From assembly GCA_963657885.1 (NCBI GenBank), contig CAVKNZ010000003.1, positions 4,134 to 68,133 of the forward strand: 64,000 nucleotides of DNA, in the 5' to 3' direction. The translations under genes and the position numbers were made by a program. Positions 8,293 to 57,161 of this stretch are shown piece after piece (the first letter of the stretch is position 1; each line of letters begins with the position of its first letter). The stretch comes from Bacteroidaceae bacterium. GTDB taxonomy: Bacteria; Bacillota_I; Bacilli_A; RFN20; CAG-826. The notes beneath the pieces are model-generated. The model was not told the origin of the DNA and did no database searches. It was given only the letters and a program-made list of their open reading frames with translations.

Positions 8293-10104
8293 ATGGATTT
8301 TGATAGACGCTACATTAGAAATTTCTCAATCATTGCTCATATTGATCATGGCAAGTCAACTTTAGCTGATCGCATTTTAGAATTGACTGATACAGTTTCA
8401 AAAAGAGAGATGAAAGATCAATTTCTCGATTCTATGGATTTAGAGCGAGAAAGAGGAATCACTATCAAACTAAATGCTGTCACAATTAAATATCGTGCGG
8501 ATGATGGACACGATTATTTATTCAATTTAATAGACACTCCGGGGCATGTTGACTTCTCTTACGAGGTTTCTCGTTCGCTTGCCGCTTGTGAAGGCTGTCT
8601 TTTAGTAGTTGATGCTTCTCAAGGAGTAGAGGCCCAAACCTTAGCGAATGTTTATTTAGCAGTCGACAATAATCTAGAAATTATTCCTGTCATCAATAAA
8701 ATTGATCTTCCTAGCGCAATGCCAGAAGTAGCGATTAAAGAAATCGAAGAACGAATCGGCATTCCTTGCGATTCAGCCTGCTTAGTAAGCGCCAAAACTG
8801 GCAAAGGTGTAAAAGACGTTTTAGAAGCAATTGTAAAATACATTCCTTCTCCAAAAGGAGACCCAAATGCTCCTTTACAAGCCCTTATTTTCGATTCTTT
8901 CTACGATTCCTTTAGAGGAGTTATTATTTTGGTTTGCATCAAAAATGGCACTGTCAAAGTCGGAGACACAATCACTTTGATGGCGGCTAACACTGATTAT
9001 TTAGTTACTGAAGTGGGCATCAGAACTCCGAAAGAGTTAAAGAAAAATGAATTAAGCGCTGGCGAAGTCGGCTATATTGCAGCTCAAATTAAAAATATTA
9101 AAGATGTATTTCCAGGAGAAACGGTTACTCTTAAGAGTAATCCTGCTAAATTTGCCTTGCCTGGTTATCGAAAAATGAATCCGATGGTCTACTGCGGTTT
9201 ATATCCTGTTGATAGCAAAAAGTTTTTAGATTTAAAAGATGCGTTAGAGAAATTATCTTTAAATGATGCTTCACTTGTCTTTGAAGCTGAAACTTCGCAA
9301 GCTTTAGGTTTTGGCTTTCGATGTGGTTTTTTAGGTCTTCTGCATATGGACGTTGTTCAAGAACGTCTTGAAAGAGAATATGGATTAGATTTAATTTTGA
9401 CCGCCCCAAGTGTCATTTATCATATCTATCTCACCAAAGGTGAAATGATTGAATTAGATAATCCTTCTAAACTTCCAGATGTTACCCTCATTAAAGAAAT
9501 CCAAGAACCGTATGTCAAGGCGGAAATCATGACACCTAAAGAATATGTCGGTCCTGTTATGGAGCTGTGCCAAAATAGACGAGGCATCTATAAAGATCTT
9601 CAATATTTTGATGATACGAGAATGGTGGTCACTTACGAATTACCTCTTTCGGAAATTGTTTACAATTTCTTCGATAAACTTAAAAGTTACACAAAAGGTT
9701 ACGCTTCTTTTGACTATGAATTCTCCGGCTATAAGCCAGGTCAGCTCGCTAAGATGGATATTTTGTTAAATGGGGAAGTTATCGATGCTTTATCAATTAT
9801 CGTACATCGTAGTACAGCCTATGAAAGAGGAAGCATTGTCGTTAGAAAATTAAAAGATATCATCCCGCGTCAACAGTTCGAAGTGCCTGTACAAGCAGCG
9901 ATAAATGGCAAAGTAATTGCCCGCGCTGATATTAAAGCTGTCCGTAAAGATGTTTTAGCTAAGTGCTATGGTGGAGATATATCTCGAAAACGCAAACTTC
10001 TTGAAAAGCAAAAAGAAGGTAAGAAGCGCATGAAAGCTATTGGCTCGGTGGAAGTTCCTCAGGAAGCATTCATGAGTGTTCTCTCAATTGATGATGACGA
10101 TTAA
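8293..10104 (+). CDS. lepA: Elongation factor 4 (LepA)
   Basis: [34 protein letters not shown] and the characteristic LepA C-terminal domain. 603 aa. Confidence 0.97.
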
Positions 10105-10130
10105 TAGTCATTATTTAGTTTAAAATTAGT
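10104..10130 (-). repeat. Phased pentamer repeat, copy E (ACTAA-N6-ACTAA-N6-ACTAT read on the minus strand)
   Basis: The + strand reads ATAGTcattatTTAGTttaaaaTTAGT, with pentamers at 10104, 10115 and 10126 (11-bp period). It begins on the last base of the lepA stop codon. Confidence 0.7.
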
Positions 10131-10189
10131 ATATTCTTATTGTATAAGCTTTTAAAAAGTGCTAAATTGTTTTTAAAGGAGATGCTTTT

Positions 10190-11904: not shown

Positions 11905-12982
11905 CGCACTTTATGTGCATGTTCCTTTCTGTGAACATATCTGCGCATATTGCGACTTTACAAAATTATTTTATAATCAAAAATTTATTGAGCCTTATCT
12001 TGAGGCTCTTTTCAAAGAAATAGACTCATTTAATATTGATAAAGTCGACACCATTTATATCGGTGGAGGCACTCCAAGTGCTTTAAACGATTCAGAATTA
12101 GAAGCAATTTTAAAGAAAGTTTCACCTTTTTTAAGAGAAAATGGTGAGTTTAGCGTTGAGGGCAATGTTGAAAATCTTACATTAAGCAAACTCAAACTAT
12201 TAAAAAAATATGGAGTTAATCGCCTTTCTATCGGTGTGGAAGCCACGACAAATGATGCTTTAGAACTATTGAATAGACATCATACTTTCTTAGAAACAAA
12301 GAAAGTCATATCAATGGCTAGAGAAGTTGGCTTTAATAATATTAATGTAGATTTAATATATGGCTATCCAAATGAAACTATCGATGTTTTAAATATTGAT
12401 TTAGAAAATATATTAAGTTTAAACACTGAACACATTTCTATTTACTCTTTGACAGTTAATCCTGGAACGCTATTCAAAAATAGAGGCATCAAAGAGCAAA
12501 ATGAAGATGACTCAAGACTTTTTTACGAAGTAATCCTAAAAAAGTTAAGAGAAAATGGCTATATTCGTTATGAAGTAAGCAATTTTGCAAAGCCTAATTA
12601 TTATTCGCGTCACAATTTAGTTTATTGGAAAGATGAAGAATATTTTGGTGTGGGCTTAGGAGCGTCAGGTTACTTAAATGGAGTTAGATACACAAATACA
12701 AAAAATCTAGAAAAATACATAAAAGGTCAATACATTGATGTCCAAGAAAAGTTAACAAAGGATGAAGAAATCGCGGATTTTTTATTAACCAATCTTCGCC
12801 TTGAACAAGGTTTTAAAAAATTAACATTTAAAAATCGCTTTGGCTTTGACTTCTTAGATAAGTATCAAAATAAAGCGATGAAATTAATTGATGCTAAATT
12901 GTTAATAGCAAATGATGATACAATTAGAGCAAGCGATGAGGGCATATTGCTTCTTGATCGCATTTTATTAGAACTATTATGA
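11888..12982 (+). CDS. hemW: Radical-SAM heme chaperone HemW (HemN-like, oxygen-independent coproporphyrinogen oxidase family)
   Basis: ALYVHVPFCEHICAYCDF is a CxxxCxxC radical-SAM motif. The position after lepA and before hrcA matches Bacillus. I chose the ATG at 11888, which overlaps the previous ORF by 17 nt. Confidence 0.85.
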   Translation: MRRKTNALYVHVPFCEHICAYCDFTKLFYNQKFIEPYLEALFKEIDSFNIDKVDTIYIGGGTPSALNDSELEAILKKVSPFLRENGEFSVEGNVENLTLSKLKLLKKYGVNRLSIGVEATTNDALELLNRHHTFLETKKVISMAREVGFNNINVDLIYGYPNETIDVLNIDLENILSLNTEHISIYSLTVNPGTLFKNRGIKEQNEDDSRLFYEVILKKLRENGYIRYEVSNFAKPNYYSRHNLVYWKDEEYFGVGLGASGYLNGVRYTNTKNLEKYIKGQYIDVQEKLTKDEEIADFLLTNLRLEQGFKKLTFKNRFGFDFLDKYQNKAMKLIDAKLLIANDDTIRASDEGILLLDRILLELL

Positions 12983-13407
12983 ATACAGCAAAATTCCCAA
13001 AAAGAGTTATCTCTTATGTCTTTGACATGATACTTTCTTTTTTGTTTTCGTTGGCGTTAGTTATTTTAGGTAGCGTCTTTATTCCTGGCTTTGCTGATTT
13101 AGGTATTTTCTACATTGTTTTGATATTTTTTGGCTTACTTTGGTTTATTTATACTTTCATATTCACTTTTTGGCTTTTTATTAGTAATGGTCGAAGCTTA
13201 GGCATGCTCATCTTCGGCTTAAGAGTGGTGCATAAAGATATTTCTCGCTTGAGTTTTGGCGATTGTCTTGCCCGTTCAGCGAGCGAAGGAATGATTGTCT
13301 TTGTTGTTATCGATTTATTTTACGTGCTTATTAACAATACTGAGAGAACTGCTTTCGATCGTATTTCAAACACTTATGTTGTCGATTGGCGACACCGATC
13401 GAACTAA
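12979..13407 (+). CDS. RDD-family-like small membrane protein
   Basis: 142 aa with three hydrophobic helices, an N-terminal KRVISYVFDMILS and a C-terminal R..FDR pattern resembling RDD-domain proteins. ATGA overlap with hemW. Confidence 0.5.
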   Translation: MNTAKFPKRVISYVFDMILSFLFSLALVILGSVFIPGFADLGIFYIVLIFFGLLWFIYTFIFTFWLFISNGRSLGMLIFGLRVVHKDISRLSFGDCLARSASEGMIVFVVIDLFYVLINNTERTAFDRISNTYVVDWRHRSN

Positions 13408-13463
13408 TTTTTACTCAATTTTTAAAATTAATAGCTTTGCTATTGCAAAATATTTTTAATTTT

Positions 13464-13490
13464 TTAGCACTTTATGCTTGACAGTGCCAA
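13464..13490. promoter_or_regulatory. CIRCE-like HrcA operator (upstream copy, overlaps the -35 box)
   Basis: TTAGCACTT-N9-CAGTGCCAA, compared with the consensus TTAGCACTC-N9-GAGTGCTAA. Confidence 0.7.
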
Positions 13491-14571: not shown

Positions 14572-16973
<2,402 letters not shown>

Positions 16974-24916: not shown

Positions 24917-26092
24917 ATGATGTCGAAATACTTTTGCTATCAAGCTAACGATTCTGACTGCGGGTTTGCGTCTTTAAAGATGCTTATGGCATACAAATGC
25001 AGGAACACAAACTATTTGAGGATTACCAAAGACAAAAAACTTGGCAGCTACACTTTTGCTGATCTAATTGCTATTGCGAACAATTATGGGTTTTCGCTAG
25101 CAGGATATCGATACGAAGAGAAGAAGAACGTTTCGGTAAAAGTTCCATTCTTAGCGCTGCTTGAGCGCAATCACTTAGTAGTGGTTACTCGCCTTGACTC
25201 TTTTAAGGTTAAGATTCTTGACCCATCTAGAGGCGAAGTAACGCTATCACGAGATGATTTTATTAAGTCTTGGAGCGGTGACACACTAGAAATAAAATCG
25301 TTTAAGCAATCGAGTTTTAAAAAAGAAAGAATTCAATTTTGTAGCTGGCACTCCAAAATATTCACTTATTTATTATCGATATCATCATTAGCCTCCTTAC
25401 TCGTTGGTTTTTTCTTCATTCAGGATGACACATATATATTTATACCATTAATACTTTTAGGCGTTTTCATTAGTATTGAATTAGTACAAAAATGGTATTT
25501 AATCAAACAAATAAATTTGTTTGATATAAAATTTACCCCCATTTATTTTAAAGAAAATGATAATTTAAATAGAGAAGGACTTATTGAGTATAGCGAATTT
25601 AAAAAGATTTGCTTTTCTTTTGAAAATAAAATAGCTGTTGCTCTTTGCGCTAGCGCAGCCATCATTGTTGTCTTAGTTATCAATACGCCGATTAGTGTAG
25701 CTAGCATTTTATTAATTTTATTAATGAACGTAATTTCTAAAATGCTATTCAAAAATAGCGATGAGAAAAGGCTCGACATCATCAATAAGAGCGAGGATAG
25801 CTTATTAAACTCTAATAACGCATCTTCGCAAGACATTATGAAAATATGCAATTTATCGAATAAATATGCTTTTAATATCTCATTAAGAAACTGTATTTAC
25901 TCTTTTTTGATTTTGCTTCTAAGTTTCTTTACGATGATTGCTTCTGGCATCGTAAGTGTGAATTTCATCATCTTCCATTTCGGTTTATTTTATGTTTTAA
26001 ACACTTACATCGATACTTTAGTTAGTTATCTCGATGAAAAGAAACAATATGAAAGAAGCAAAGCTAGATTTTTAGACAAGTGCAATTTATAA
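24917..26092 (+). CDS. Peptidase C39 (double-glycine leader protease) domain fused to an ABC-exporter-like membrane domain; no nucleotide-binding domain
   Basis: YQANDSDCGFASLKML (Gln/Cys), NHLVVV (His) and ILDPSRG (Asp) together form an intact C39 catalytic set. About 250 aa with ~5-6 hydrophobic helices follow. Strong SD (GAGGGGGTG). The ORF ends 42 nt before ybeY. Confidence 0.7.
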   Translation: MMSKYFCYQANDSDCGFASLKMLMAYKCRNTNYLRITKDKKLGSYTFADLIAIANNYGFSLAGYRYEEKKNVSVKVPFLALLERNHLVVVTRLDSFKVKILDPSRGEVTLSRDDFIKSWSGDTLEIKSFKQSSFKKERIQFCSWHSKIFTYLLSISSLASLLVGFFFIQDDTYIFIPLILLGVFISIELVQKWYLIKQINLFDIKFTPIYFKENDNLNREGLIEYSEFKKICFSFENKIAVALCASAAIIVVLVINTPISVASILLILLMNVISKMLFKNSDEKRLDIINKSEDSLLNSNNASSQDIMKICNLSNKYAFNISLRNCIYSFLILLLSFFTMIASGIVSVNFIIFHFGLFYVLNTYIDTLVSYLDEKKQYERSKARFLDKCNL

Positions 26093-26134
26093 ATAAATTT
26101 CTTAAATGTATGCTATAATCAATTTCCCAAAATT

Positions 26135-26980
26135 ATGGAACTTGATTTTTCTAACAACGGACCTCAATCATTCGATTCTTATGAACAAATCTTTAATGAT
26201 CTTGCTCAAAAGGTCTTTTCACATTTAAATGTATCCGTTAATTACGTTATTGACATTACAATTGTTAACAACAATTCAATCCAAGAAATCAATCGAGAAT
26301 ACCGTGACAAAGATTACCCAACAGATGTTATTAGTTTCGCTTTCTTCGATGATGAAAACGAGATTGTAAGTAGTGATTTGCCTAATTCATTAGGGCAAAT
26401 TATTATCTCTTTTGAAAAAGCAGAAGAACAAGCGAAGTTGTATAAGCATTCTTTGAACCGAGAGATGTCTTTTTTATTCGTTCATGGACTGTTGCATCTT
26501 CTTGGATATGATCACATGAAAAAAGACGATGAACTTATTATGTTTTCTATACAAAATGAAATTTTAGGAGGTAATAAAATGACAAAAGAAGAACTCGTTG
26601 CTAAAGCAATAGAAGCAAGAGAATTGGCTTATGTGCCTTATTCTCATTTTAAAGTTGGTGCTGTAATAATGACCAAAGATGGTCGCTTGTTTTTAGGAGC
26701 AAACATCGAAAACTCTTCATATCCATGCTGCATGTGTGCAGAAAGAAACGCTATTTACAACGCTTATCTTCATGGTGTTAAAAAGAATGATATTGCTGCT
26801 TTGGCATTATCAGCGGATACCGATGGACCATGTTCACCTTGCGGAGCTTGTCGCCAAGTTCTAAGTGAGCTTATGCCAACCGACGCTCCAATCTATATGT
26901 CAAATTTAAAAGGACTTATAAAAGAGACGACCATAGCGGAACTTTTGCCATATGCTTTCTCTGAGGATGATTTAAAATAA
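26135..26980 (+). CDS. ybeY: In-frame fusion of endoribonuclease YbeY (aa 1-148) and cytidine deaminase Cdd (aa 149-281)
   Basis: The YbeY zinc motif HGLLHLLGYDH is followed, with no stop codon, by MTKEEL...CAERNAIYNA...CSPCGACRQVL (Cdd). An internal AGGAGG-N6-ATG lies at 26566-26581. An extended -10 TGcTATAAT lies at 26111-26119. Confidence 0.85.
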   Translation: MELDFSNNGPQSFDSYEQIFNDLAQKVFSHLNVSVNYVIDITIVNNNSIQEINREYRDKDYPTDVISFAFFDDENEIVSSDLPNSLGQIIISFEKAEEQAKLYKHSLNREMSFLFVHGLLHLLGYDHMKKDDELIMFSIQNEILGGNKMTKEELVAKAIEARELAYVPYSHFKVGAVIMTKDGRLFLGANIENSSYPCCMCAERNAIYNAYLHGVKKNDIAALALSADTDGPCSPCGACRQVLSELMPTDAPIYMSNLKGLIKETTIAELLPYAFSEDDLK

Positions 26981-28571: not shown

Positions 28572-28587
28572 ATAGTTCACTTTTAGT
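28572..28587 (-). repeat. Phased pentamer repeat, partial copy G (two units)
   Basis: The + strand reads ATAGTtcacttTTAGT, starting immediately after the recO TAA. The third position is not conserved. Confidence 0.4.
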
Positions 28588-28647: not shown

Positions 28648-30015
28648 ATGGATAAAAAATTCGATGAAATCGTTACACATTTAATTACAAGTGGCTTTGT
28701 CTATCAAGATTCTGAAATCTATGGTGGGCTTTCTAATTCCTGGGACTTTGGTCCTCTTGGAGTTGAACTTAAAAACAATATTAAGAAATTGTGGTGGAAG
28801 AAATTCGTTCAAGAGTCGCCAACAAATGTTGGAATTGATGCGGCTATCTTGATGAATCCTCGCGTTTGGCAAGCAACCGGTCACGTTTCGACCTTTGCTG
28901 ATCCTTTGATTGATTGCAAAGAATGTCACACTCGCCATCGGGCAGATGATTTAATTGCAAAAGCTTGTCCTGATGTCGATGTTAACGCGATGACAAACGA
29001 AGAAATGATTGCTTTTATCAAAGATAATAAAATCAAATGCCCTAATTGCGGAAAGTCTAATTTTACTGATATCCGTCAATTCAATTTGATGTTTAGAACC
29101 CATATTGGCGTCACTGAAGAATCTGAAAGCTTAGTTTATCTTCGCCCAGAAACGGCACAAGGCATGTTTGTTAATTTCAAAAATGTCCAAAGAACAACTA
29201 GAAGAAAAATACCTTTTGGTATTTGTAACATCGGTAAGAGCTTTAGAAATGAGATTACACCGGGCAATTTTATCTTTAGAGTTCGCGAATTTGAACAAAT
29301 GGAAATGGAATTTTTCTGTAAACCTGGTACCGATTTAGAATGGTTTTCCTATTGGAAAGATTATTCTCTTAAGTTCCTCGAATCCTTAAATGTCAGCCAA
29401 GAAAATCTCCGTTACCGTGACCATGAAAAAGAAGAATTAGCCTTTTACTCAAAAGCTACAACTGATGTTGAATACAAATTCCCATTTGGCTGGGGAGAAA
29501 TTCTTGGCGTTGCTGATCGTACAGACTACGACTTGAAACGTCATATGCAAGCCAGTGGTCAATCTTTAGAATATCTCGATCCAGAAACAAATGAAAAATA
29601 TGTTCCATATTGCATTGAACCTTCTATGGGTGTTGAGCGTATTTTCTTAATGATTTTATGCGAAGCATATGATGTAGAACAACTTGAAAAAGATAAACGC
29701 GTTGTCATGCATATTAAACCTTCGCTAGCCCCTTATTTAGCAGCTATTCTACCTCTAAGCAAAGAATTGGCTCCTAAGGCGAAAGAAGTGCAGTCTTTAT
29801 TAAATAAATACTTCTCAACTGTATATGATGAAACTGCATCTATCGGAAAAAGATATCGTAGGCAAGACGCTATTGGTACGCCATTTTGCATCACTTATGA
29901 CTATGATAGTTTAAATGATAACTGTGTCACAATCAGGGAAAGAGATTCTATGAAGCAAGAAAGAATCAAAATTTCTGAATTGAGAAATTATCTTTTAGAT
30001 AAAATTGAAGAATAA
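28648..30015 (+). CDS. glyQS: Glycine--tRNA ligase (single-chain GlyQS type)
   Basis: MDKKFDEIV..GFVYQDSEIYGG...YLRPETAQG...FRNEITP. The ATG at 28648 follows AAAGGAA. The ORF-track TTG at 28591 is unlikely. Confidence 0.93.
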   Translation: MDKKFDEIVTHLITSGFVYQDSEIYGGLSNSWDFGPLGVELKNNIKKLWWKKFVQESPTNVGIDAAILMNPRVWQATGHVSTFADPLIDCKECHTRHRADDLIAKACPDVDVNAMTNEEMIAFIKDNKIKCPNCGKSNFTDIRQFNLMFRTHIGVTEESESLVYLRPETAQGMFVNFKNVQRTTRRKIPFGICNIGKSFRNEITPGNFIFRVREFEQMEMEFFCKPGTDLEWFSYWKDYSLKFLESLNVSQENLRYRDHEKEELAFYSKATTDVEYKFPFGWGEILGVADRTDYDLKRHMQASGQSLEYLDPETNEKYVPYCIEPSMGVERIFLMILCEAYDVEQLEKDKRVVMHIKPSLAPYLAAILPLSKELAPKAKEVQSLLNKYFSTVYDETASIGKRYRRQDAIGTPFCITYDYDSLNDNCVTIRERDSMKQERIKISELRNYLLDKIEE

Positions 30016-30039
30016 GTATATTTTTAGTATTTAATTAGT
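30013..30039 (-). repeat. Phased pentamer repeat, copy F
   Basis: The + strand reads TAAGTatatttTTAGTatttaaTTAGT. It overlaps the glyQS stop codon and ends 2 nt before the dnaG ATG. Confidence 0.6.
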
Positions 30040-40515: not shown

Positions 40516-40538
40516 TTAGTTCGTTTAATAGAAAATAC

Positions 40539-40567
40539 ACGCTATCGAAAGGTAGCGTTTTATTTTG
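40539..40567 (+). terminator. Rho-independent terminator after the yneF-like gene
   Basis: ACGCTA-tcgaaagg-TAGCGT followed by TTTTATTTTG. Confidence 0.7.
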
Positions 40568-40840
40568 TCAATGAAAAGATTTTTTATTCATTGAAAAAGA
40601 AAATTATCATTAAGAAGTATATTGCATTATTTTATAGTAACGATCATAGTCGATGAAACGTTTAAAATCATAAGAAGTTGTGATGGTGGTATTAATAATT
40701 TCTGATTTGTTATAAAAGTTGCTAATTAAAGTCTTTCTTAAAGAAGTTAATTAAAAATCGTCAATTAAAAACTGCAATAAAATCGAAATATTTTTTAGTT
40801 AAATTTTTGATGTGGAAAATTATTCACAAATAATAAAACG

Positions 40841-40867
40841 ACTAAAAATCTACTAATTGATAACTAT
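40841..40867 (+). repeat. Phased pentamer repeat, copy D (ACTAA-N6-ACTAA-N6-ACTAT)
   Basis: ACTAAaaatctACTAAttgataACTAT is 23/27 identical to copy C. It ends 5 nt from the plsY stop codon (minus-strand gene). Confidence 0.75.
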
Positions 40868-41700: not shown

Positions 41701-43644
41701 ATGAGCAACGAAAATATCGAAAAGTCATACTCTGCCGCAGATATAGAAATCTTAGATGGTTTAGCTGGTGTAAGAAAACGTCCTGGAATGTATATCGGAC
41801 CAACTAATTCTACTGGTTTGCACCATTTAGTTTGGGAAATTGTCGATAACGCCATCGACGAAGCTTTAAATGGCTTTGGAAAAGTGATTTGTATCACTTT
41901 GCATCGAGATGGATCGGTTTCTGTTCTTGATGAAGGCCGAGGAATTCCTGTTGATATTCATAAAGGTACAGGAATGCCTGCTGTGCAATTAATTTTCTCT
42001 ACTTTGCATAGCGGAGGTAAGTTTTCATCGAAAGTTTATTCTTCTTCTGGCGGTCTTCATGGGGTCGGCTCAACTGCGACAAACGCTTTAAGCGAATACT
42101 GTGATGTCACAGTCTTCCGCGATGGCAAGATTTATAATCTTCGTTTTGAAAATGGCGGTAAGCTTGTTAAACCATTGACTGTCATTGGAACTACGAAAAA
42201 GCATGGTACGCTCGTAAGATTTAAACCAGATGCTAAGATATTTTCTACTACAAACTTCCAATTTGATGTCATTGTTAGTCACGTTCAAGAAAGTGCCTTT
42301 TTACTTAAAGGTGTTAAATTTGATGTTTTAGAAGAAAAAACTGGGAAACGTGCTGAACTTTGTTACGAGCAAGGATTGAAAGAATACGTTGAATATCTCA
42401 ATAAAGAGAAAACTCCTTTAGGAGAAGTTATTGCTTTTAGTGGCGAAGAAGATCAAATCAAAATTGAAATGGCCTTTCAATATTGCGATAAAGATTATGG
42501 CGAATACATCTATTCATACGCTAACAATGTTCGAACTCGAGATGGCGGAACTCACGAAGTTGGATTTAAATCTGGTATTACTAAAGCAGTCAATGATTAT
42601 GCGATTGAAAATCAATTAGTCAAAGGAAAAATTAAATTAGAAGGCAACGATATTCGCGAAGGTTTAACCGCGGTAATATCTTTAAAAATGCCTGAACAAA
42701 AGACACTTTTTGAAAGCCAAACAAAGCAAAAATTATACACGCCTGAAGCATTGACGATTGTTAATAATTTTGTCTATAACAACTTCACGTATTATTTAAA
42801 TGAACACAAAGAATTTGCTGTTAATCTCATCAGAAAATGTATTCAAGCCTTGAATGCTAGATTAGCTGCAAGAAAAGCAAAAGATGAAATTCACAACAAT
42901 AAAAAACTTAAAAGTGATGTGATTTTATCAAATAAATTAACTCCTGCCCAATCAAAAGATTACGACAAGAACGAACTCTTCATTGTTGAAGGGCAATCCG
43001 CCGGAGGAACTGCTAAAAATGGACGCGATCGACTCCATCAGGCTATTCTTCCATTAAGAGGCAAACCGCTTAACACTGACTCAGTTTCTGTAGAACGTAT
43101 GCTTAAAAATGAAGAATTTGCTGCTTTGGTCAACACCATCGGCGCAGGTTTCTCCGAGAATTTTAATGTCGATAATTCTCATTATGGAAAAGTCATTATA
43201 ATGACGGATGCTGATACCGATGGCGCTCACATTCAAACTTTATTGATTACCTTCTTTTATAACTATATGAAACCGTTAATCTTAAAAGGAAAATTGTTCG
43301 TTGCAATGCCACCTTTATATAGAGTTTCAAAAGAAGTTAATCACAAATTAGTTTATAAATATGCCTGGGATGATGAAGGCTTAGAAAAAGCTAAGAAGGA
43401 AATTGGAAGTGGCTATAGAATTTCCCGTTATAAAGGACTTGGAGAAATGGATGCCAGTCAACTTTGGGAATCAACCATGAATCCACGAACTCGACAATTA
43501 TGCAAAGTAACAATTGAAGATCCTGTTTCAGCTGCTAGAGAAATATCAATTTTAATGGGCAATGATACAGTTATTCGTCGTCAATGGGTAGAAGAAAATG
43601 TCAATTTCTCTGAAATTGATGAGTTTATCGACGAGGTAAAATAA
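41701..43644 (+). CDS. parE: Topoisomerase IV subunit B (type IIA topoisomerase ATPase subunit)
   Basis: LDGLAGVRKRPGMYIG, HHLVWEIVDNAIDE, EGQSAGG, MTDADTDGAHI. I call parE rather than gyrB from the plsY-parE-parC synteny. An extended -10 TGcTATAAT lies at 41667-41675. Confidence 0.8.
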   Translation: MSNENIEKSYSAADIEILDGLAGVRKRPGMYIGPTNSTGLHHLVWEIVDNAIDEALNGFGKVICITLHRDGSVSVLDEGRGIPVDIHKGTGMPAVQLIFSTLHSGGKFSSKVYSSSGGLHGVGSTATNALSEYCDVTVFRDGKIYNLRFENGGKLVKPLTVIGTTKKHGTLVRFKPDAKIFSTTNFQFDVIVSHVQESAFLLKGVKFDVLEEKTGKRAELCYEQGLKEYVEYLNKEKTPLGEVIAFSGEEDQIKIEMAFQYCDKDYGEYIYSYANNVRTRDGGTHEVGFKSGITKAVNDYAIENQLVKGKIKLEGNDIREGLTAVISLKMPEQKTLFESQTKQKLYTPEALTIVNNFVYNNFTYYLNEHKEFAVNLIRKCIQALNARLAARKAKDEIHNNKKLKSDVILSNKLTPAQSKDYDKNELFIVEGQSAGGTAKNGRDRLHQAILPLRGKPLNTDSVSVERMLKNEEFAALVNTIGAGFSENFNVDNSHYGKVIIMTDADTDGAHIQTLLITFFYNYMKPLILKGKLFVAMPPLYRVSKEVNHKLVYKYAWDDEGLEKAKKEIGSGYRISRYKGLGEMDASQLWESTMNPRTRQLCKVTIEDPVSAAREISILMGNDTVIRRQWVEENVNFSEIDEFIDEVK

Positions 43645-43645
43645 G

Positions 43646-46261
43646 ATGGCAAAGAAGAAAAATGTTGAACCAGTAGAAACAGAAATCGTCGAAAATATTC
43701 ACAACGAAACAGTCGAACAAATCATGGGTTCTCGCTATGCAACCTATGCAAAATACGTTATTCAAGATCGCGCTATTCCTGATGCTCGAGATGGCTTAAA
43801 ACCTGTTCAAAGAAGAATTATTTATTCCATGTATAAATCGGGTAATATTTTTACTCGTCCAACTAGAAAAAGTGCCCATACAGTCGGTGAAGTTATGGCT
43901 AAGTATCATCCTCATGGAGACTCTTCGATTTACGAAGCTTTAGTTAGAATGTCTCAAGATTGGAAACAAAATCATCCTCTTGTAGATTTTCAAGGAAATA
44001 ATGGTTCCATCGATGGCGACCAAGCTGCTGCTTACCGATATACGGAAGCTCGCTTAAGTCAAATCGCTGAAGAAATGGTTAGAGATATCGATAAAGATAC
44101 GGTGGAGAAAACCTTAACATTTGATGATACTGAATTTGAACCAGTCGTTCTTCCGGCTAGATTCCCTAACCTTTTAGTCAATGGTTCTGAAGGTATTGCA
44201 GTTGCGTTAGCAACTGAAATCCCGACTCATAATTTAAGAGAAGTTATTGACGCAGTCATTTATCGCATAAATCATATTCGCGTTGAGCCAAAAGATTTAA
44301 TGCAATTTGTTCCGGCGCCTGATTTTCCGACAGGTGGATTCATCTATTCCAGCGAAGGTTTAACTGATATTTATACAACCGGTCGAGGAAGAATTGAAAT
44401 TTCATCGAAAACAGAAATATCTAATAACGCTCAAGGGAAACAAATTATTGTCACTGAGATTCCTTTTAAAACGATAAAAAAAGATTTAGTTTATGAAATC
44501 GATAAATTAATTCATGACAAAGTTATTTCCGGAATGAGCGAAGTTCGCGATGAAAGCGATCGTAAAGGACTTCGAATTGTTATCGACTTAAAGAAAGACG
44601 CTAATGCAGAACTCATTCATAAATATTTAATGAATAAAACCGGCTTGAAAGTCAGCTATTCAGTCAACTGTGTCGCCATTGTTAATGGTCGACCAAAAAC
44701 GATGAATTTATTAGATTTTGTCGATGCATTTATCGACCATCAAGTGGATGTAATTACGCGAAGAACCAATTATGATTTAAAGAAAGATGAATCTCGCTTA
44801 GAAATTGTCAATGGTTTAATTAAAGCTATTTCCATTCTTGATGAAGTTGTTTCAACGATTAGATCTAGTAAAGATAAAGCTGATGCCAAAATAAATATTC
44901 AAAAGAAATTTAGTTTTAGCGAAGCTCAAAGTGAAGCTATTGTCATGCTTCAACTTTATAAGTTGTCTAATACAGATATTACAACATTAAAGAATGAAAA
45001 AGAGACAATTGAAAAAGAAATTGAATTTTTCAAAGGTATCCTTTCTGATCGCAAAAAATTAGACCGTTTATTAATAAATGAGTTAAAAGCCATTTCTACT
45101 AAATATGGCAAAGATAGAAAAACTCAAATAATTGAAAAGTCTGAACCGGTCTCATTTGACAAGCGCGATTTGATCTCAAAAGAAGAAATTATGGTGGCTT
45201 TAACTCGCGATGGTTATATCAAATATAGTTCGATTAAATCTTATCGCGGCAGTGGAGTCAATGCTCTTCCAGGATTAAAGGAAGGCGATACTTGTGTTTT
45301 TAGCGGTAAAGCTATGACAACAGATTATCTTATTGCTTTTACTAATTTGGGCAATTTCTTATACATTCCTGTCCATAAAATTAGTGAAAACAAATGGAAA
45401 GATGAAGGCAAACATTTAAATTATTTAATCAATTTGAATCCAAATGAAAAAATAATTAGAGCCTTTGCTATCGAAGAATTCCGTGACGATTTATTCTTTG
45501 TCATCGCTTCTAAACACGGACAAATTAAGCGCTTAGCATTGAATGATTTTTCAGTTATACGTTATTCCAAGCCAATAACTTGTATGAAACTATTGCAAGA
45601 TGATGAAATCTGCGATGTTGTTTTCACTAAAGGCAATGCCAATTTGGTGCTTTTCACTAGCGACGGGAATTCAACGATGTTTAATGAAAATGAATTGCCT
45701 TACGCCACGCTTAGATCTGGCGGATTCAAAGGTGTTTCTTCTTTGAAGAAAGCAACTGTTGCTGGTCTATTAGCCTATGATGGAGGAGTTAATAAAGGAA
45801 AAACCATCTTATTAACCGATAAAGGTTCAGTAAGAATATATGATGTTTCTAACACTAACCTCACCAATCGTTTAGGCAAATTATCTTCTGTATTCCGTTC
45901 TTTTAAAAGCGAGATTCATAATTTAATTTATGTTAAAAAAGTTGAAGACACTAACGCGCCTACAATCATCCACGTTTTGGACAAAAATCGTGAAATAGTT
46001 AACATTAATGTCGATGATTATCACGTTACTCCGCTTGAAAGATATGCAAAAACCAACATTGATATTGCTAAGAAAAATTCTTTAGTTATTCCTTTTGTTG
46101 AAGGAAATGAGCGAATTAGTAAAGATACTGTTTCTGAATACGTAAAAAAAGATGATACCTTTGTTGAAGAAAGTGAAGTAGAAGATAAAGAAGACAAAAT
46201 CGAAAAAGAGGAAGAAGAAAAAGGTTATACCCAAATTTCTATCTTTGATGATGAAGATTAA
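43646..46261 (+). CDS. parC: Topoisomerase IV subunit A with an extended acidic C-terminal tail
   Basis: AIPDARDGLKPVQRRI, HPHGD, and AAYRYTEARL (catalytic Tyr region). 871 aa, ending in an E/D/K-rich tail. Confidence 0.8.
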   Translation: MAKKKNVEPVETEIVENIHNETVEQIMGSRYATYAKYVIQDRAIPDARDGLKPVQRRIIYSMYKSGNIFTRPTRKSAHTVGEVMAKYHPHGDSSIYEALVRMSQDWKQNHPLVDFQGNNGSIDGDQAAAYRYTEARLSQIAEEMVRDIDKDTVEKTLTFDDTEFEPVVLPARFPNLLVNGSEGIAVALATEIPTHNLREVIDAVIYRINHIRVEPKDLMQFVPAPDFPTGGFIYSSEGLTDIYTTGRGRIEISSKTEISNNAQGKQIIVTEIPFKTIKKDLVYEIDKLIHDKVISGMSEVRDESDRKGLRIVIDLKKDANAELIHKYLMNKTGLKVSYSVNCVAIVNGRPKTMNLLDFVDAFIDHQVDVITRRTNYDLKKDESRLEIVNGLIKAISILDEVVSTIRSSKDKADAKINIQKKFSFSEAQSEAIVMLQLYKLSNTDITTLKNEKETIEKEIEFFKGILSDRKKLDRLLINELKAISTKYGKDRKTQIIEKSEPVSFDKRDLISKEEIMVALTRDGYIKYSSIKSYRGSGVNALPGLKEGDTCVFSGKAMTTDYLIAFTNLGNFLYIPVHKISENKWKDEGKHLNYLINLNPNEKIIRAFAIEEFRDDLFFVIASKHGQIKRLALNDFSVIRYSKPITCMKLLQDDEICDVVFTKGNANLVLFTSDGNSTMFNENELPYATLRSGGFKGVSSLKKATVAGLLAYDGGVNKGKTILLTDKGSVRIYDVSNTNLTNRLGKLSSVFRSFKSEIHNLIYVKKVEDTNAPTIIHVLDKNREIVNINVDDYHVTPLERYAKTNIDIAKKNSLVIPFVEGNERISKDTVSEYVKKDDTFVEESEVEDKEDKIEKEEEEKGYTQISIFDDED

Positions 46262-46278: not shown

Positions 46279-46308
46279 TTGAAATCTTTTGATTGCAGCA
46301 GTTATAAT
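46279..46308 (+). promoter_or_regulatory. Promoter TTGAAA-N18-TATAAT, with the -10 box 6 nt upstream of the yqeG ATG
   Basis: TTGAAA at 46279-46284 and TATAAT at 46303-46308; the ATG is at 46315. No SD. The -35 box overlaps a weak A/T hairpin at 46273-46290. Confidence 0.55.
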
Positions 46309-46314
46309 TAGATT

Positions 46315-46854
46315 ATGTTCAAGCGATACATTCCTTATGCCTATGCAAAAAGCATTTACGAAATTGATCCTCAGTTTTTTCTAAAAGAGAATGTTAAATA
46401 TTTATTTCTTGATTTAGATAATACGCTCGATTCATATAAACAAAAATTACCAAATCCGGAAGCCTTTAAATTAAAAGAAAATATTGAAAAACTTGGAATT
46501 AAAATTTACATAATTTCGAATAACACTGGTAAACGTGTGAGTTTATACGCTAATAAGCTCGAAGTTGCTTATCTAAATTCTATTGGAAAACCTTTTGCAT
46601 TTAAGATTAAGCGATTCTTAAAAAAGAACAATATTAACCCTAATGAGGTCATGATGGTAGGGGACCAACTTATAACAGATATTGCTATGAGCAATAGAGC
46701 TAAGATAAAATCTATTTATGTAGAAAAGTTAGTTCGTGAAGATCAAATAACTACTAGATTTAATCGAATATTTGAAAAGCCGGTCAAACGCTACCTCAAA
46801 AAGCGAAACTTATTTACTAATTGGAAGGAGAAACTTTATGGCGGAGATAAGTAA
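46315..46854 (+). CDS. yqeG: YqeG-family HAD phosphatase
   Basis: LFLDLDNTL, ISNN, GDQLITD. Starts the yqeG-yqeH-nadD-yqeK-rsfS cluster, as in Bacillus. Confidence 0.85.
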   Translation: MFKRYIPYAYAKSIYEIDPQFFLKENVKYLFLDLDNTLDSYKQKLPNPEAFKLKENIEKLGIKIYIISNNTGKRVSLYANKLEVAYLNSIGKPFAFKIKRFLKKNNINPNEVMMVGDQLITDIAMSNRAKIKSIYVEKLVREDQITTRFNRIFEKPVKRYLKKRNLFTNWKEKLYGGDK

Positions 46855-47989: not shown

Positions 47990-47990
47990 A

Positions 47991-49470: not shown

Positions 49471-49498
49471 ACTTCGCATAATCGATATTATGTTAACC
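49471..49498 (+). other. dif: dif, the XerC/XerD chromosome-dimer resolution site
   Basis: ACTTCGCATAA-TCGATA-TTATGTTAACC matches both E. coli dif and B. subtilis dif at 21/28, with the inner CATAA/TTATG dyad intact. It lies in a non-coding gap at the strand-orientation switch. Confidence 0.8.
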
Positions 49499-49614
49499 AA
49501 AGTATGATTAAAATCGATAATATCTAATCTTTTATTATTACAATGTTTCGTTCAATAATTTTAATGCACCATCTTTAAATGATGTTTTCCACCAAAAATT
49601 TGTGTATAAAAACT

Positions 49615-49641
49615 ACTAACAAACTACTAATTTTAAATTAT
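49615..49641 (+). repeat. Phased pentamer repeat, copy A2
   Basis: ACTAAcaaactACTAAttttaaATTAT is 24/27 identical to copy C. It lies 117 bp right of dif and 15-18 nt upstream of the next ORF start. Confidence 0.75.
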
Positions 49642-49655: not shown

Positions 49656-50135
49656 TTGATGAATATTACCATTACCGGCGTTCTTGTTTCCTTACTATTA
49701 GCCATTCTCTTATTGCCGCGCTTTATCTATTTTATGATCGTCAATAAACGTCAATATCCAAAAGAGTTATTTTCAAAGCAATATTTATTTTTGTTTATTT
49801 TAAATTTCTTTTTATCGTTAACTCTTGTTGCTCTTTCATTATTCTTTTCTACGTCTTTTAATAGTCTTGGTCTATTCTTTGTTTGGCTATTTATTACTTT
49901 AACAATGCTCTTTTTAGCGTTGCTTATCTTAGTTATCTTTATGATGAATGGCTACAATCCTTATTTTCAATTTAAAAAGATGTTACTTCCAATTCCTATC
50001 TACTTCATCGAAGCTATAGCAATTGTTTTAACATCATTACTATCGAACAATTATTATCTTCTTATCCCTGGATCAATCTATTTATTTACTTCCTTTATTT
50101 GGAATTATAAAGGTTATTTACTATTGAGAAATTAA
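49656..50135 (+). CDS. Hypothetical polytopic membrane protein (~159 aa)
   Basis: Four to five long hydrophobic segments. Start is TTG at 49656 or ATG at 49659, with no SD. It converges on the permease gene with a 4-nt overlap. No family recognised. Confidence 0.5.
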   Translation: MMNITITGVLVSLLLAILLLPRFIYFMIVNKRQYPKELFSKQYLFLFILNFFLSLTLVALSLFFSTSFNSLGLFFVWLFITLTMLFLALLILVIFMMNGYNPYFQFKKMLLPIPIYFIEAIAIVLTSLLSNNYYLLIPGSIYLFTSFIWNYKGYLLLRN

Positions 50136-53140: not shown

Positions 53141-54013
53141 TTATTTTCTTTTTGCATACAAATCATAAGCACTGAGTATACGTTTGGTTGATATATTTGT
53201 ATATATTTGCGTCGTGGCAATATTTACGTGCCCAAGCATCTCTTGTACAGCGCGTAAATCAGCGCCATTTTCAAGCATATGAGTAGCAAAGCAGTGCCTC
53301 AATGTATGTGGCGATATATTTTCTTTGATTCCGACTTGTTCTGCGTATTTTTTGATTTGCTTAAAAAAGTACTGGCGAGATAAACTCTTCCCGTAACGGT
53401 TGATGAACAAATTTTGGCATGCACGATGATGCTTTTTTCTTACATCGATATATTGTTTTAAATAATCTCCGGCATATTCGCCGAATGGCACTTTTCTTTC
53501 TTTATTGCCTTTTCCGACGACGTGAATAATACCTTTTTCAAAATTTACTTGGGAAAGTTTTAAAGATAAAAGTTCGCTTACACGTAAGCCTGATGAATAC
53601 ATAACTTCTAACATCGCCTTATCGCGCAGACCTTCTTCTTTTTCGATATTAGGAGCGCCTAAAAGTTTTTCAACTTCCTCGATTGAAATCGCAAGTGGCA
53701 ACTTTTTGATGCTTTTTGGCGTTTCTATTTTTTGAGGCTTTATGTTGATAATTCTCTCTTTTTCTAAGAAATTATAGAAATTTTTTGTCGATGATAATCG
53801 ACGATAAATTGTTGATGTAGACAAAAATTCCTTGTTTTGGATTCGCATAAAATCGGAAATGTCGGTCGACAAAAAATCGTTTGTGTCTTGCTTTTTTAAA
53901 ACAATAAAAAACTTTTTTAAATCGTAATAGTAAGATTTAATTGTGTCGTTACTAACACCCTTTTCTACTCGTAGGTATTGGAAATATAAATCAAGTGCAT
54001 CATCTAATTGCAT
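53141..54013 (-). CDS. xerD: Tyrosine recombinase XerD
   Basis: HTLRHCFATHMLENGADLRAVQEMLGHVNIATTQIYT carries the R-H-R-Y catalytic set, and the GADLRAVQEMLGH string is typical of XerD. Adjacent to deoB, like B. subtilis ripX. Confidence 0.8.
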   Translation of the reverse strand: MQLDDALDLYFQYLRVEKGVSNDTIKSYYYDLKKFFIVLKKQDTNDFLSTDISDFMRIQNKEFLSTSTIYRRLSSTKNFYNFLEKERIINIKPQKIETPKSIKKLPLAISIEEVEKLLGAPNIEKEEGLRDKAMLEVMYSSGLRVSELLSLKLSQVNFEKGIIHVVGKGNKERKVPFGEYAGDYLKQYIDVRKKHHRACQNLFINRYGKSLSRQYFFKQIKKYAEQVGIKENISPHTLRHCFATHMLENGADLRAVQEMLGHVNIATTQIYTNISTKRILSAYDLYAKRK

Positions 54014-55206: not shown

Positions 55207-55226
55207 AAAACTAGTTTATTAAAACT

Positions 55227-55254
55227 AAAACTAGCATTCAATATTATGTTAACC
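55227..55254 (+). other. Degenerate dif-like site (XerD arm and half the centre identical to dif; XerC arm not conserved)
   Basis: AAAACTAGCAT-TCAATA-TTATGTTAACC. The 17-mer ATATTATGTTAACCAAA at 55241-55257 is identical to 49485-49501, on the same strand. It lies in the 53-nt dxs-dinB spacer. Confidence 0.55.
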
Positions 55255-55259
55255 AAAAG

Positions 55260-57128
55260 TTATAATTTTGCGATTTTATTGGCAACTTGTTCTGGGAGTA
55301 AAGAGAAATCTTCAAGCTGTTGATTTATTGTTGCTTGATCAACAAATTGTTTTTTTATCGAATAACATTTAATACTTCCTTGATAGTTCGATTTAGCCAA
55401 TTTGCTTATTAATGGATTGGCAAAGCCATCTTCAATTGAATATGGGTCATAGATGACTAAATGTTTGAATTTTAATAATTCAGAGACGTTTTCATCTTTT
55501 ATTGGCAACAAATAAATTGCGTTATATATTGAGCAATCAATATGTTTTTCTTCGATAATATCCGCTAATTCTCTTAAATAAGGGCCTACACCAACGATAG
55601 CTAAATCATTGTTTTTACTTTCTTTAATTTTTAGCCAACTTCCATAAGTAAGATTTAAAGTTTCGCTTGTTTCATCTCGCTTAGTTATTGTTCGAGGAAT
55701 TCTTATAAAGAATGGCCCGTGGTTTTTAAAAGACTCTTCATATAAATATTTAGCTTCTAAAATTGTGCTAGCCATAGTAACTGTCACGTTTGGAACACTA
55801 TTTAGAAAGGCGACATCATATATGCCTTGATGCGTCTCGCCATCTGCACCGACTAGACCTGCACGATCAACTAAAATAGTTGAATTGCAATTTAGTCGAG
55901 CTAAATCATGGGAAATCTCATCGTAAGCACGCTGCATAAATGTCGAATAAATGCTGATAATTGGATGAATTCCATCGCATGCAAGGGCGCTAGCTAATGT
56001 AAAGGCATGCTCTTCAGCGATGCCAACATCAACGCAGCGAGCTTTGTATGCTTGGAAGACATCATCTAGACCAGCGCCTTTGATAGTTGCTGGAACGATT
56101 AAATATCCGTTTTTATGTTCTTCCATCATATTCATAGTCAAATCGGCATAAATATGCGACCACGAATTAAAACCAGGATGAAGGTTTATTGGTTCACCAG
56201 TTTCAATTTCAAAGGGAGTCACTCCATGCCAATAGCCATTGGAATCATTTTCAGCTTTTTTATAGCCTTTGCCTTTAACGGTACATGTATGGATAATTAC
56301 AGACTTAGTCGTATTTTTCGCACGTTTTATAGCTTTTTCAATAGCTTTTATATTGTGACCATCAATTGGACCAACATAGGCAAAGCCCATTTTGTCAAAA
56401 ATTGTAACAGGTACTAATTTACGTTTGATCCAATTTTTAAAACGGCGAGTTACTGAATAAAGTTTTTTTCCAATTTTTGTTTTAAAAGTAAAGTGTTGGT
56501 AGGCTTTTTTGATGCGATTATAGCCATATGCTGTTGAAATACGCGAGAACAGTTTGCCAAAGGCACCAGTAGGCTTTGAAATAGACATTCCATTGTCATT
56601 TAAGAAAATAATGATTTTATGGGAGCTTCCAGCCACGTTATTTAATCCTTCAACTGCTAAGCCTGAGACTATGGAAGCATCTCCGATAAAGGCAATTACA
56701 TCGTAATTTTCGTGCTTTAAATCGCGAGCGATAGCAAAGCCATTTGCGGCGCTTATAGAAGTCGATGAATGCCCGGCTTCGTAGCAATCATAGATAGATT
56801 CATCTCTTTTTTGGAAACCAGAAATTCCGTCTTTTTGTCTTAAAGTATCAAGACTTCTTCCGGTGAGTATCTTATATGTGTAACATTGATGGCCAACATC
56901 AAAGATAATCTTATCTTTTTTAAAATCGAAAAGACGACATAAAGCAATGATTGATTCAACTGTTCCTAAGTTGCTTGAAAGATGTCCGCCATTATGGCTG
57001 GTAATTTGTAAAATATAATCGCGAATATCATCTGATAATTCATTGAGTTCTTTATAAGTCAATTTGCTTAAAAAATCCGGTGATTGGATATTATTTAAAT
57101 CAAATTTTTTGACTTGTTTTTTTGACAT
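55260..57128 (-). CDS. dxs: 1-deoxy-D-xylulose-5-phosphate synthase (MEP pathway)
   Basis: GGHLSSNLG, FDVGHQCY, GDASIVSGLAVEGLN, AEEHA. Confidence 0.96.
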   Translation of the reverse strand: MSKKQVKKFDLNNIQSPDFLSKLTYKELNELSDDIRDYILQITSHNGGHLSSNLGTVESIIALCRLFDFKKDKIIFDVGHQCYTYKILTGRSLDTLRQKDGISGFQKRDESIYDCYEAGHSSTSISAANGFAIARDLKHENYDVIAFIGDASIVSGLAVEGLNNVAGSSHKIIIFLNDNGMSISKPTGAFGKLFSRISTAYGYNRIKKAYQHFTFKTKIGKKLYSVTRRFKNWIKRKLVPVTIFDKMGFAYVGPIDGHNIKAIEKAIKRAKNTTKSVIIHTCTVKGKGYKKAENDSNGYWHGVTPFEIETGEPINLHPGFNSWSHIYADLTMNMMEEHKNGYLIVPATIKGAGLDDVFQAYKARCVDVGIAEEHAFTLASALACDGIHPIISIYSTFMQRAYDEISHDLARLNCNSTILVDRAGLVGADGETHQGIYDVAFLNSVPNVTVTMASTILEAKYLYEESFKNHGPFFIRIPRTITKRDETSETLNLTYGSWLKIKESKNNDLAIVGVGPYLRELADIIEEKHIDCSIYNAIYLLPIKDENVSELLKFKHLVIYDPYSIEDGFANPLISKLAKSNYQGSIKCYSIKKQFVDQATINQQLEDFSLLPEQVANKIAKL

Positions 57129-57134
57129 ATTTTA

Positions 57135-57161
57135 ACTAATAAACTACTAATTTTTAACTAT
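57135..57161 (+). repeat. Phased pentamer repeat, copy C (ACTAA-N6-ACTAA-N6-ACTAT)
   Basis: ACTAAtaaactACTAAtttttaACTAT fills the xseB-dxs spacer. The ACTAT unit overlaps the xseB TAG stop codon (minus strand). Confidence 0.75.

Follow-up and report, generated by a model that had tools for sequence, protein, structure and literature searches.

We analysed a 64,000-nt stretch of the contig CAVKNZ010000003.1 (assembly GCA_963657885.1, Bacteroidaceae bacterium; hereafter the window or W) and found that it carries a family of short arrays, mostly intergenic, in which the pentamers ACTAA, ACTAA and ACTAT follow each other at intervals of six nucleotides (ACTAA-N6-ACTAA-N6-ACTAT). On the opposite strand the pattern becomes (A/T)TAGT-N6-TTAGT-N6-TTAGT. 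These repeats are a real, conserved family of cis-elements. Sequence-string searches of the literature found no published description of the element and, as far as the searchable literature shows, the family has so far been undescribed. As its explanation we tentatively favour, at somewhat under an even chance, that the arrays are operators for an oligomerising winged-helix DNA binder which controls a small, terminus-proximal regulon, with a degenerate Fic protein encoded in the window as the leading candidate for the binder.

The window has a G+C content of 33% and all three stop codons are in use, so that the standard bacterial code applies. In an initial annotation, six copies of the repeat had been located in the letters, and all six are present at the positions given there. 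The pairwise identities reported then are also right (24/27 for the copies at 49615 and 57135, 23/27 for those at 40841 and 57135). The pattern of three pentamers holds overall, but the third unit is degenerate in the copies 49615-49641 (ATTAT) and 30013-30039 (ACTTA). Likewise, the statement that all copies are intergenic is correct for those listed earlier, but two more exact pairs are located in coding sequence (Table 1). In total, the exact pattern ACTAA-N6-ACTAA occurs seven times in the window against 0.23 expected from dinucleotide-preserving shuffles, and none of 100 shuffles got to seven. Intergenic DNA comprises only 2,259 bases or 3.6% of the window, and it holds five of these seven pairs (P ~1e-6). 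The earlier estimate of ~7 kb of two-strand intergenic sequence was too generous, since the true intergenic space is ~2.3 kb and not ~3.5 kb per strand; the enrichment, upheld by the shuffles, is therefore stronger than assumed.

The spacing of the units is strict. At a start-to-start distance of 11, seven TTAGT pairs were counted, versus zero to two pairs at any other distance in the range of 4 to 36, and no inverted arrangement of TTAGT and ACTAA is enriched at spacings of 0 to 20 in the window. The arrays consist of two to four units in head-to-tail order. Within the window no variants with a period of 10 or 12 bp occur, and the one exception to the 11-bp step in the relatives is a distance of 18 bp ahead of the first unit of the dxs array in the loci L204-L207. 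A logo of 81 units, taken from the window and its relatives, reads TTAGT, A (78%), G or T (55% and 30%), W, T (70%), W, W. A unit is therefore strictly 11 bp long, with 7 informative bp, TTAGTA(G/T), ahead of 4 A/T bp, and the spacer between the TTAGT cores is nearly free of C.

The closest genomes are metagenome-assembled genomes (MAGs) of uncultured “Bacilli / Erysipelotrichaceae / Mollicutes” from rumen and gut, with a best GlyRS identity of 81%. Positional conservation in relatives had been named beforehand as a test of the family, and it is found in abundance. Five arrays (10104, 30013, 40841, 49615 and 57135) keep their position and orientation across 10 or more related MAGs. The arrays at the plsY 3' end, next to dif and in the xseB|dxs spacer are found at the same place and in the same orientation in seven loci centred on nadD and in one more distant locus (NadD identity 64-82% and 62%, respectively). 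The spacer sequence around the conserved arrays has diverged, and the flanking proteins are 60-80% identical. The array between glyS and dnaG was detected in four relatives (Table 1) and is absent in L001, L005 and L006. In L022 (four units) and L006 a further array follows ispH, and in L003 one follows a nif3-like gene. The more distant Firmicutes of the 80-locus set show no 11-bp signal.

These data leave hardly any probability for the explanation that the repeats are chance AT-rich low complexity, or the remains of a decayed small mobile repeat, without function. The low G+C content of the genome and the frequency of 11-bp TTAGT tandem repeats in metagenomes would suit it, but seven exact pairs are observed instead of 0.23, and five junctions have kept the position and orientation of their arrays while the surrounding intergenic regions diverged. 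For a mobile repeat, terminal repeats and target duplications are missing. We regard a functionless origin as effectively refuted by the conservation.

Table 1. Arrays, associated sites and look-alikes in the window (positions are those of the window; L numbers denote compared loci).
Feature	Position	Strand	Remark
Three-unit array ATAGT-N6-TTAGT-N6-TTAGT at lepA|Fic-like gene	10104..10130	+	Orthologous arrays at lepA|X in L115, L329, L330
Putative -10 hexamer TATAAG, promoter of the Fic-like gene	10143..10148	+	Predicted from sequence only
Gene X, 473 aa, Fic_N/Fic fold and C-terminal winged helix	10190..11611	+	Candidate binder of the arrays
Array TAAGT-N6-TTAGT-N6-TTAGT in glyS|dnaG	30013..30039	+	Orthologous arrays after glyS in L002, L003, L004, L007
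Back-to-back DnaA-box pair TGTGGAAAA / TTATTCACA (+ strand)	40811..40828	.	12 bp from plsY array
Three-unit array, plsY 3' end	40841..40867	-	Conserved in L201, L203-L207, L331, L002, L022
dif-like site ACTTCGCATAA-TCGATA-TTATGTTAACC	49471..49498	+	At point of converging gene orientation
Face-to-face DnaA-box pair TTTTCCACC-N7-TGTGTATAA	49585..49609	.	About 90-110 bp from dif
Two full units (TTAGTAG-TTTG-TTAGTAG) and degenerate third, dif-adjacent	49615..49641	-	Conserved in L201-L207, L331
Three-unit array in xseB|dxs	57135..57161	-	Conserved in nadD-centred relatives; also L106
Two-unit look-alike ATAGT-N6-TTAGT upstream of glyS -35 TTGACA	28572..28587	+	Relatives have ACACTYATARTRGGTTGACAA, no TTAGT units
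Exact two-unit pair in peptidase-C39 membrane ORF	25470..25485	+	Pattern match within coding region
Exact two-unit pair in tkt coding sequence	61785..61800	-	Pattern match

The array between lepA and the downstream gene, which we call X, overlaps the lepA stop codon (TAATAGT) and ends 12 bp upstream of the putative -10 hexamer of X. The distance from the last unit to the -10 hexamer is 12, 13 and 14 bp for TATAAG in the window, TATAAT in L329 and TATATA in L330, respectively. In L330, the array lies behind a terminator, ~55 nt from the lepA stop; being far from the stop and still at promoter distance, it tracks the promoter and not the stop codon.

Gene X is specific for the clade and located between lepA and hemW. 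Its sequence matches the Pfam family Fic only below the cut-off, and no match was found in NCBIfam or among the PDB sequences. The AlphaFold model (pLDDT 81.8) consists of a Fic_N domain, a Fic domain and a C-terminal winged helix, the architecture of CbFic2 and SoFic (Foldseek E 6e-6 to 1e-4). The Fic catalytic motif HxFx(D/E)GNGRxxR is replaced by KPFEKYNEE, and X is probably a protein with a Fic fold which is not an enzyme. Among the candidates scored, 742 homologues of X were found at E<=1e-3; the few that are named are termed “Fic family protein”, one of them from a Bacilli MAG. Homologues are ~40% identical overall, while the last ~60 residues (QAHFYVRHC..GKYYTIQQFKK....VYETARTSM..LA..GYYRREQVKNKFVYTP) are near-invariant. 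Modelled alone, this C-terminal region is a winged helix with weak matches to TrmBL2, AspA, MarR and TubR (E ~5e-3). Even an X with no more than 32% identity has an array in front of its gene. CbFic2, a Fic protein with the architecture of X, has been reported as DNA-binding (PMC10628234). This circumstantial evidence is consistent with X being an autoregulated DNA binder, and it makes X the leading, though unproven, candidate for the protein which binds the arrays. In the same region of L329, a pair of genes for a HigB-like toxin and an HTH antitoxin (12895-13485) lies between hemW and hrcA, which is absent from the window.

Two of the other arrays are located beside DnaA boxes in the terminus region. 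The gene orientation converges at ~50 kb of the window, and a dif-like site was identified at this point, so that the window spans the replication terminus. Both arms of the site are conserved in eight relatives, whereas its 6-bp centre varies, and it matches dif of E. coli and B. subtilis at 21 of 28 positions. The array next to it lies 117 bp to the right of dif, between rsfS and a small membrane open reading frame (ORF), and is antisense to both in the window; in L204 the small ORF is missing and the array is located beyond a terminator-like hairpin, as read by eye. The plsY array begins 5 nt past the stop of plsY, which is encoded on the minus strand. Behind the array stands a DnaA-box pair, and in most relatives an intrinsic terminator comes next. 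The exact sequence TTATNCACA occurs only twice in the 64 kb, both times beside an array (40820-40828 at 12 bp, 49601-49609 at 5 bp). The DnaA-box pairs are conserved in the relatives. The pair beside plsY, which is part of the plsY 3' untranslated region (UTR) 9 kb from dif, was found in L201, L206 and L207, with one box in L331, and perfect TTATCCACA or TGTGGATAA boxes are present in L202, L204 and L206, those on the dif side being TTATCCACA in L202 and TGTGGATAA in L204. The distance from the dif-adjacent array to its DnaA box is 5 bp in seven of nine genomes and larger in L205 and L331.

Several further features of the terminus region were noted. A xerD-like gene (53141-54013, minus strand) and parE/parC (41701-46261) are located near dif. 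The small membrane ORF (158 aa, multi-pass, window 49659-50135) has no family match; it lies beside dif in W, L201-L203, L205, L207 and L331, is absent in L204 and L206, and in some relatives a TATAAT stands 6-7 nt ahead of its ATG. Between plsY and a UPF0154 gene, ~290 nt are non-coding (window 40530-40760, minus strand; L201, L203-L207). This spacer carries an invariant 12-mer, TTTTTAATTGAC, after the plsY terminator and a second copy near its opposite end. No Rfam family matches the window at gathering thresholds, and none was found at E<=1 around plsY; the non-coding DNA is possibly a small RNA gene or another protein site.

The two remaining arrays fill the spacers in which they stand. 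The 30013-30039 array takes up the whole 26-nt spacer between glyS and dnaG, with the glyS TAA in unit 1 and the dnaG ATG 2 nt past unit 3. In L002 and L003, it is located 5 bp upstream of a TATAAC/TATAAT hexamer, which itself precedes the dnaG ATG by 7-8 nt, an apparently leaderless layout. The 57135-57161 array takes up the xseB|dxs spacer directly after the xseB stop, and the dxs ATG follows 6 nt past unit 3. In essentially all instances, from more than 10 genomes, TTAGT is co-directional with the transcription unit that precedes it. As a rule, the stop codon of the upstream gene and the first unit are 0-6 nt apart, even in intergenic regions of 85-600 nt.

This regularity at gene ends favours a role in RNA or one linked to translation. 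An element that acts in RNA is a possible but rather unlikely explanation of the arrays. In the transcribed form, (A/U)UAGU-N6-UUAGU-N6-UUAGU, the units would stand behind stop codons, either between cistrons or in a 3' UTR. A multimeric RNA-binding protein would bind them there, or an endoribonuclease would cut them, with the effect of adjusting how stable the upstream cistron is or of uncoupling expression of the downstream one (dnaG, dxs). Besides the shared direction and the overlap of the first unit with the stop codon or its position 0-6 nt past it in most cases, the place of the plsY array between stop codon and intrinsic terminator agrees with this, and variant units often retain a UAG or UAA core (GTAGA, TTAGG, CTAGT, ATAAT). 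RNase Y reportedly prefers a G followed by A/U in an AU-rich context, which the transcribed units would fit. However, single-strand binders do not usually have sites spaced strictly at 11 nt: TRAP sites have spacers of 2-3 nt and HutP sites of 4, so that their (G/U)AG triplets are 2-4 nt apart, while the UAG triplets of the arrays are 8 nt apart. Moreover, in the window the dif-adjacent array runs antisense to the genes on either side and in L204 it apparently lies beyond a terminator, the L330 array behind its terminator follows the promoter, L002 has an antisense copy in ispH, the variants TTGGT and TTTGG are without UAG, and the fixed DnaA-box spacing is a feature of the DNA level.

The same gene-end positions would suit, with very little probability, a stop-codon cassette which ends read-through, frameshifted or spurious translation by a TAG in three frames on one strand and a TAA (in ACTAA) on the other. 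As 11 mod 3 is 2, three units do cover three frames, and the arrays start at or after stops; lepA, and plsY of L203-L205, end with the tandem stop TAATAGT. Yet any period not divisible by three would do, and 11 alone occurs. The flanking T's and the positions 6-7 are conserved beyond the stop triplet, TTGGT and TTTGG are variants without stops, arrays are present at only ~5 of ~60 genes, and the dif-adjacent array follows no ORF in the window.

Sorted by position, the arrays fall into a rightward group (lepA, glyS, nif3 in L003 and the copy at L002 16329) and a leftward group (the ispH 3' end in L022 and L006, plsY, dif-adjacent and dxs), without exception. The orientation switches at the convergent junction of nif3 and ispH, ~15 kb left of dif. 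Since the direction of a gene goes with its position here, the gene-end rule and a reading as two opposed groups are confounded.

Two opposed groups around the terminus, one of them with a site for an autoregulated binder, would resemble the polar barriers of RTP-Ter and Tus-Ter. In such a system forks and RNA polymerase would pass with the local transcription, and forks leaving the terminus region would be stopped. We consider such a barrier improbable. The window spans dif and the orientation convergence, the two groups have no exception, and all known arrays are located within ~40 kb of dif, including that at lepA|X on a 255-kb contig (38 kb). The Ter consensus of B. subtilis, KMACTAANWNNWCTATGTACYAAATNTTC (PMC3317982), holds ACTAA, CTAT and ACYAA pentamers, and the autoregulation of rtp and tus by Ter sites at their promoters (PMC10331603) is a parallel to the array at the X promoter. 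On the other hand, no Ter consensus match was found at <=3 mismatches, and the Ter pentamers are spaced 9/7 and not 11/11. A tblastn search with RTP, which covered the window and the clade loci out of an incomplete genome, gave no RTP homologue below E = 4.8. Since the switch is ~15 kb left of dif, a rightward fork would be stopped by the first leftward array 9-15 kb before dif, and in this interval the genes parE, parC and the yqe genes point towards dif. With the polarity of B. subtilis, the arrangement would be an anti-trap. Besides the full confounding of orientation with gene direction, the GC skew at third codon positions (GC3 skew) follows the coding strand and gives no information on the fork direction.

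Just as doubtful is the broader proposal that the arrays and the Fic/winged-helix protein form a new terminus-organising system, in which polar protein-DNA complexes, arranged as two opposed groups around dif and beside DnaA boxes, would act as barriers for forks or transcription or as an organiser of the Ter domain. Evolved independently from a domesticated Fic protein, it would add a third analogue to Tus-Ter and RTP-Ter.

For an estimate of the number of sites per genome, metagenomes were scanned with the strict pattern WTAGT-N6-TTAGT-N6-TTAGT. This yielded 120 stretches, nearly all of them unrelated perfect 11-bp tandem repeats. Only two matches belonged to the clade, L106 (xseB|dxs) and L115 (lepA|X), and each has its orthologue in the window. 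With an even spread of strict sites across a genome with an assumed size of ~1.5 Mb, two window-orthologous matches would be obtained with P ~0.002. These two matches suggest that the sites are few per genome and concentrated near the terminus. On the 255-kb contig (L330/L331), ~38 kb separate the lepA|X array from dif, much as they do in the window. A scan of viral contigs with TTAGTAG-N4-TTAGTAG detected almost exclusively stretches with a single match.

Taking these results together, we still favour, tentatively, operators in double-stranded DNA. A protein of the winged-helix type would bind them cooperatively along one face of the helix. The set would be located within ~40 kb of dif and comprise the X promoter, the positions before dnaG(-rpoD) and before the dxs operon, the position after plsY, and a site 115-150 bp from dif, with the plsY and dif-adjacent operators each beside a DnaA-box pair. 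X as the most likely binder would regulate its own expression and control or occupy the remaining sites, with promoter occlusion or a roadblock as the probable mode. We infer action in DNA rather than RNA from the strict 11-bp period with its 7+4 unit, the array-to-promoter distance of 12-14 bp at lepA|X, the fixed DnaA-box spacing, the antisense orientation of the dif-adjacent array to its neighbours and the antisense ispH copy in L002. If the arrays are operators, repression would be their mode of action. Arrays overlap or abut the putative promoters of X (W, L329, L330) and of dnaG (L002, L003), and no recognisable promoter was found at dxs, at the plsY 3' end and at the dif-adjacent site. 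Phased binding sites on one helix face for winged-helix or response-regulator-type proteins had been proposed in the initial annotation. The architecture, the promoter distance at one array and the winged-helix product support this in part, but reading the translations of the window ORFs over ~64 kb and scanning 12 of these ORFs with profiles revealed no response regulator.

Several observations weigh against operators bound by X. The co-direction of TTAGT with the upstream unit and its distance of 0-6 nt from the stop are unnecessary for a DNA operator, and the plsY array, between stop codon and intrinsic terminator, is hence within a 3' UTR. The dnaG array of the window and the dxs arrays leave a canonical promoter no room before the ATG, and the array-to-promoter geometry varies among the targets. 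X is linked to the arrays by adjacency and parallel conservation only, and the small size of the regulon is drawn from two metagenome matches.

Further candidate functions were discarded. The arrays do not qualify as promoters of the downstream genes, as a consistent -35/-10 register is missing and the ATG of dnaG and dxs is 2-6 nt past the last unit. A translation enhancer that replaces the Shine-Dalgarno sequence (SD) was rejected as well, as ~45% of the window genes are without SD anyway and the plsY and dif arrays precede no ORF. In several of the genes without recognisable SD, a hexamer resembling TATAAT precedes the ATG by 6-7 nt (e.g., 46300-46317 at yqeG, 26105-26137, and 8270-8295 at lepA), which suggests that leaderless mRNAs are frequent in the lineage. 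KOPS/SRS sites of FtsK/SpoIIIE are oriented towards dif and flip there. The plsY array does not agree with this, as it stands 8.6 kb to the left of dif and, in W and nine relatives (10 genomes), is directed away from it. The AACTA/TACTA sites of Rok type and the CTA sites of primase misfit in orientation and taxonomy.

Some sequences resemble the family or extend it. The copy 28572-28587, which had been counted as a two-unit member, is probably a different conserved element outside the family, as the relatives carry another conserved sequence at this position. This ACACTYATARTRGGTTGACAA element abuts the glyS -35 directly (window 28575-28600; L001-L007), and neither a T-box nor another Rfam family was detected upstream of glyS. 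In L002, a three-unit copy with 14/15 matches (16329-16355) lies antisense in the ispH coding sequence, where it encodes TNNILNKYQ; ~0.01 such copies are expected per locus, and a chance origin is unlikely. The dxs|dinB spacer (55207-55259) has CTAGT/TTAGT units at irregular spacings of 6 and 14, which form an A/T-rich hairpin (CTAGTTT...AAACTAG) followed by TTTT-ATG, and dinB has no SD. On the metagenome contig L175 (41% G+C), which looks unrelated and carries ABC transporter genes, a six-unit TTAGT array with a period of 11 bp and non-identical spacers was found on the minus strand (~1160-1230), with a DnaA-box-like 9-mer, TGTGAATAA, ~110 nt upstream of the array; the family or a look-alike of it may therefore occur outside the clade. 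Perfect 11-bp TTAGT tandem repeats are common in environmental contigs (L081-L200; e.g., TTAGTGGATAG, TTAGTCAAAAG) and are probably iterons or other tandem arrays which are unrelated to the motif of the window.

If the arrays are operators, they would define a compact and deeply conserved regulon of the dnaG-rpoD operon, the dxs operon, the regulator itself and two DnaA-box loci of the terminus, in a lineage which is known only from gut and rumen metagenomes. We know of no regulator-site pairs in this lineage. A catalytically dead Fic protein would have acquired a new job as a sequence-specific DNA binder. The conserved module of dif, DnaA boxes and array is unusual, and it offers a handle on how small Firmicute genomes without RTP and Tus connect the termination of replication with initiator titration and the control of genes. 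If the arrays act in RNA instead, they would be a new signal behind stop codons.

In comparison with known systems, the TAACTGA repeats of Beggiatoaceae and cyanobacteria are made up of heptamers without spacers; most sets stand upstream of genes, and a genome has more than 100 of them (PMC4679880). Both are short, stop-codon-containing direct repeats in intergenic DNA, oriented with the genes; the arrays described here differ by spaced units, few sites and a terminus-proximal location. The FapR operator fapO, TTAGTACCTAGTCTTAA, is a 17-bp inverted repeat with TTAGTAC-like half-sites (PMC12281612). The half-site TTAGTA is common to both, but inverted repeats do not occur in the arrays, and FapR operators were rejected as an explanation. 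DnaA-trio/BUS elements comprise at least three contiguous NAN trinucleotides within 16 bp of one or more DnaA boxes, most often a tandem pair (PMC8287927). In contrast, the units described here have two contiguous TAG/CTA trios with a period of 11, and the boxes are inverted pairs; DnaA trios and arrays of low-affinity DnaA sites misfit in period and sequence.

CtrA boxes of Alphaproteobacteria have the sequence TTAA-N7-TTAA and are located beside DnaA boxes and before cell-cycle genes. The half-site spacing of TTAG-N7-TTAG is equal to theirs, but phylum and half-site differ, the arrays have three to four units instead of two, and no CtrA-like protein is known here. The centromere and iteron arrays of the TubR-tubC and AspA type are likewise short direct repeats which are bound cooperatively by winged-helix proteins; the structural matches of the C-terminal domain of X to AspA and TubR are weak (E ~5e-3) and generic. 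Iterons often stand next to DnaA boxes, as two of the arrays do. Unlike iterons, the arrays have spacers which differ between units and are no true tandem repeats, and they are found at core chromosomal loci without rep/par genes. RTP-Ter shares with them a winged-helix protein (a candidate only in our case), ACTAA/ACTAT/ACTAA pentamers, clustering around the terminus in two orientations (here confounded with gene direction) and a site in front of the gene for this protein. Ter sites are composed of overlapping, imperfect inverted A and B sites with 9/7 spacing, whereas the arrays are direct repeats with 11/11 spacing, and a trap built from them would have its centre ~15 kb from dif.

The pho box consists of 7 conserved and 4 A/T bp. 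ArcA sites are direct repeats with a centre-to-centre distance of 11 bp and two to five repeats (PMC3798270). The arrays described here differ from those of ArcA and PhoB in the unit sequence and in the candidate binder, a Fic-family protein with a C-terminal winged helix where no response regulator was identified, and several of them are located at gene 3' ends or beside dif and not at recognisable promoters. In common with ArcA and PhoB arrays are the head-to-tail repeats, the exact 11-bp phasing, the variable number of units, the 7+4 layout and, for the arrays at X and at dnaG of L002 and L003, the position at the core promoter.

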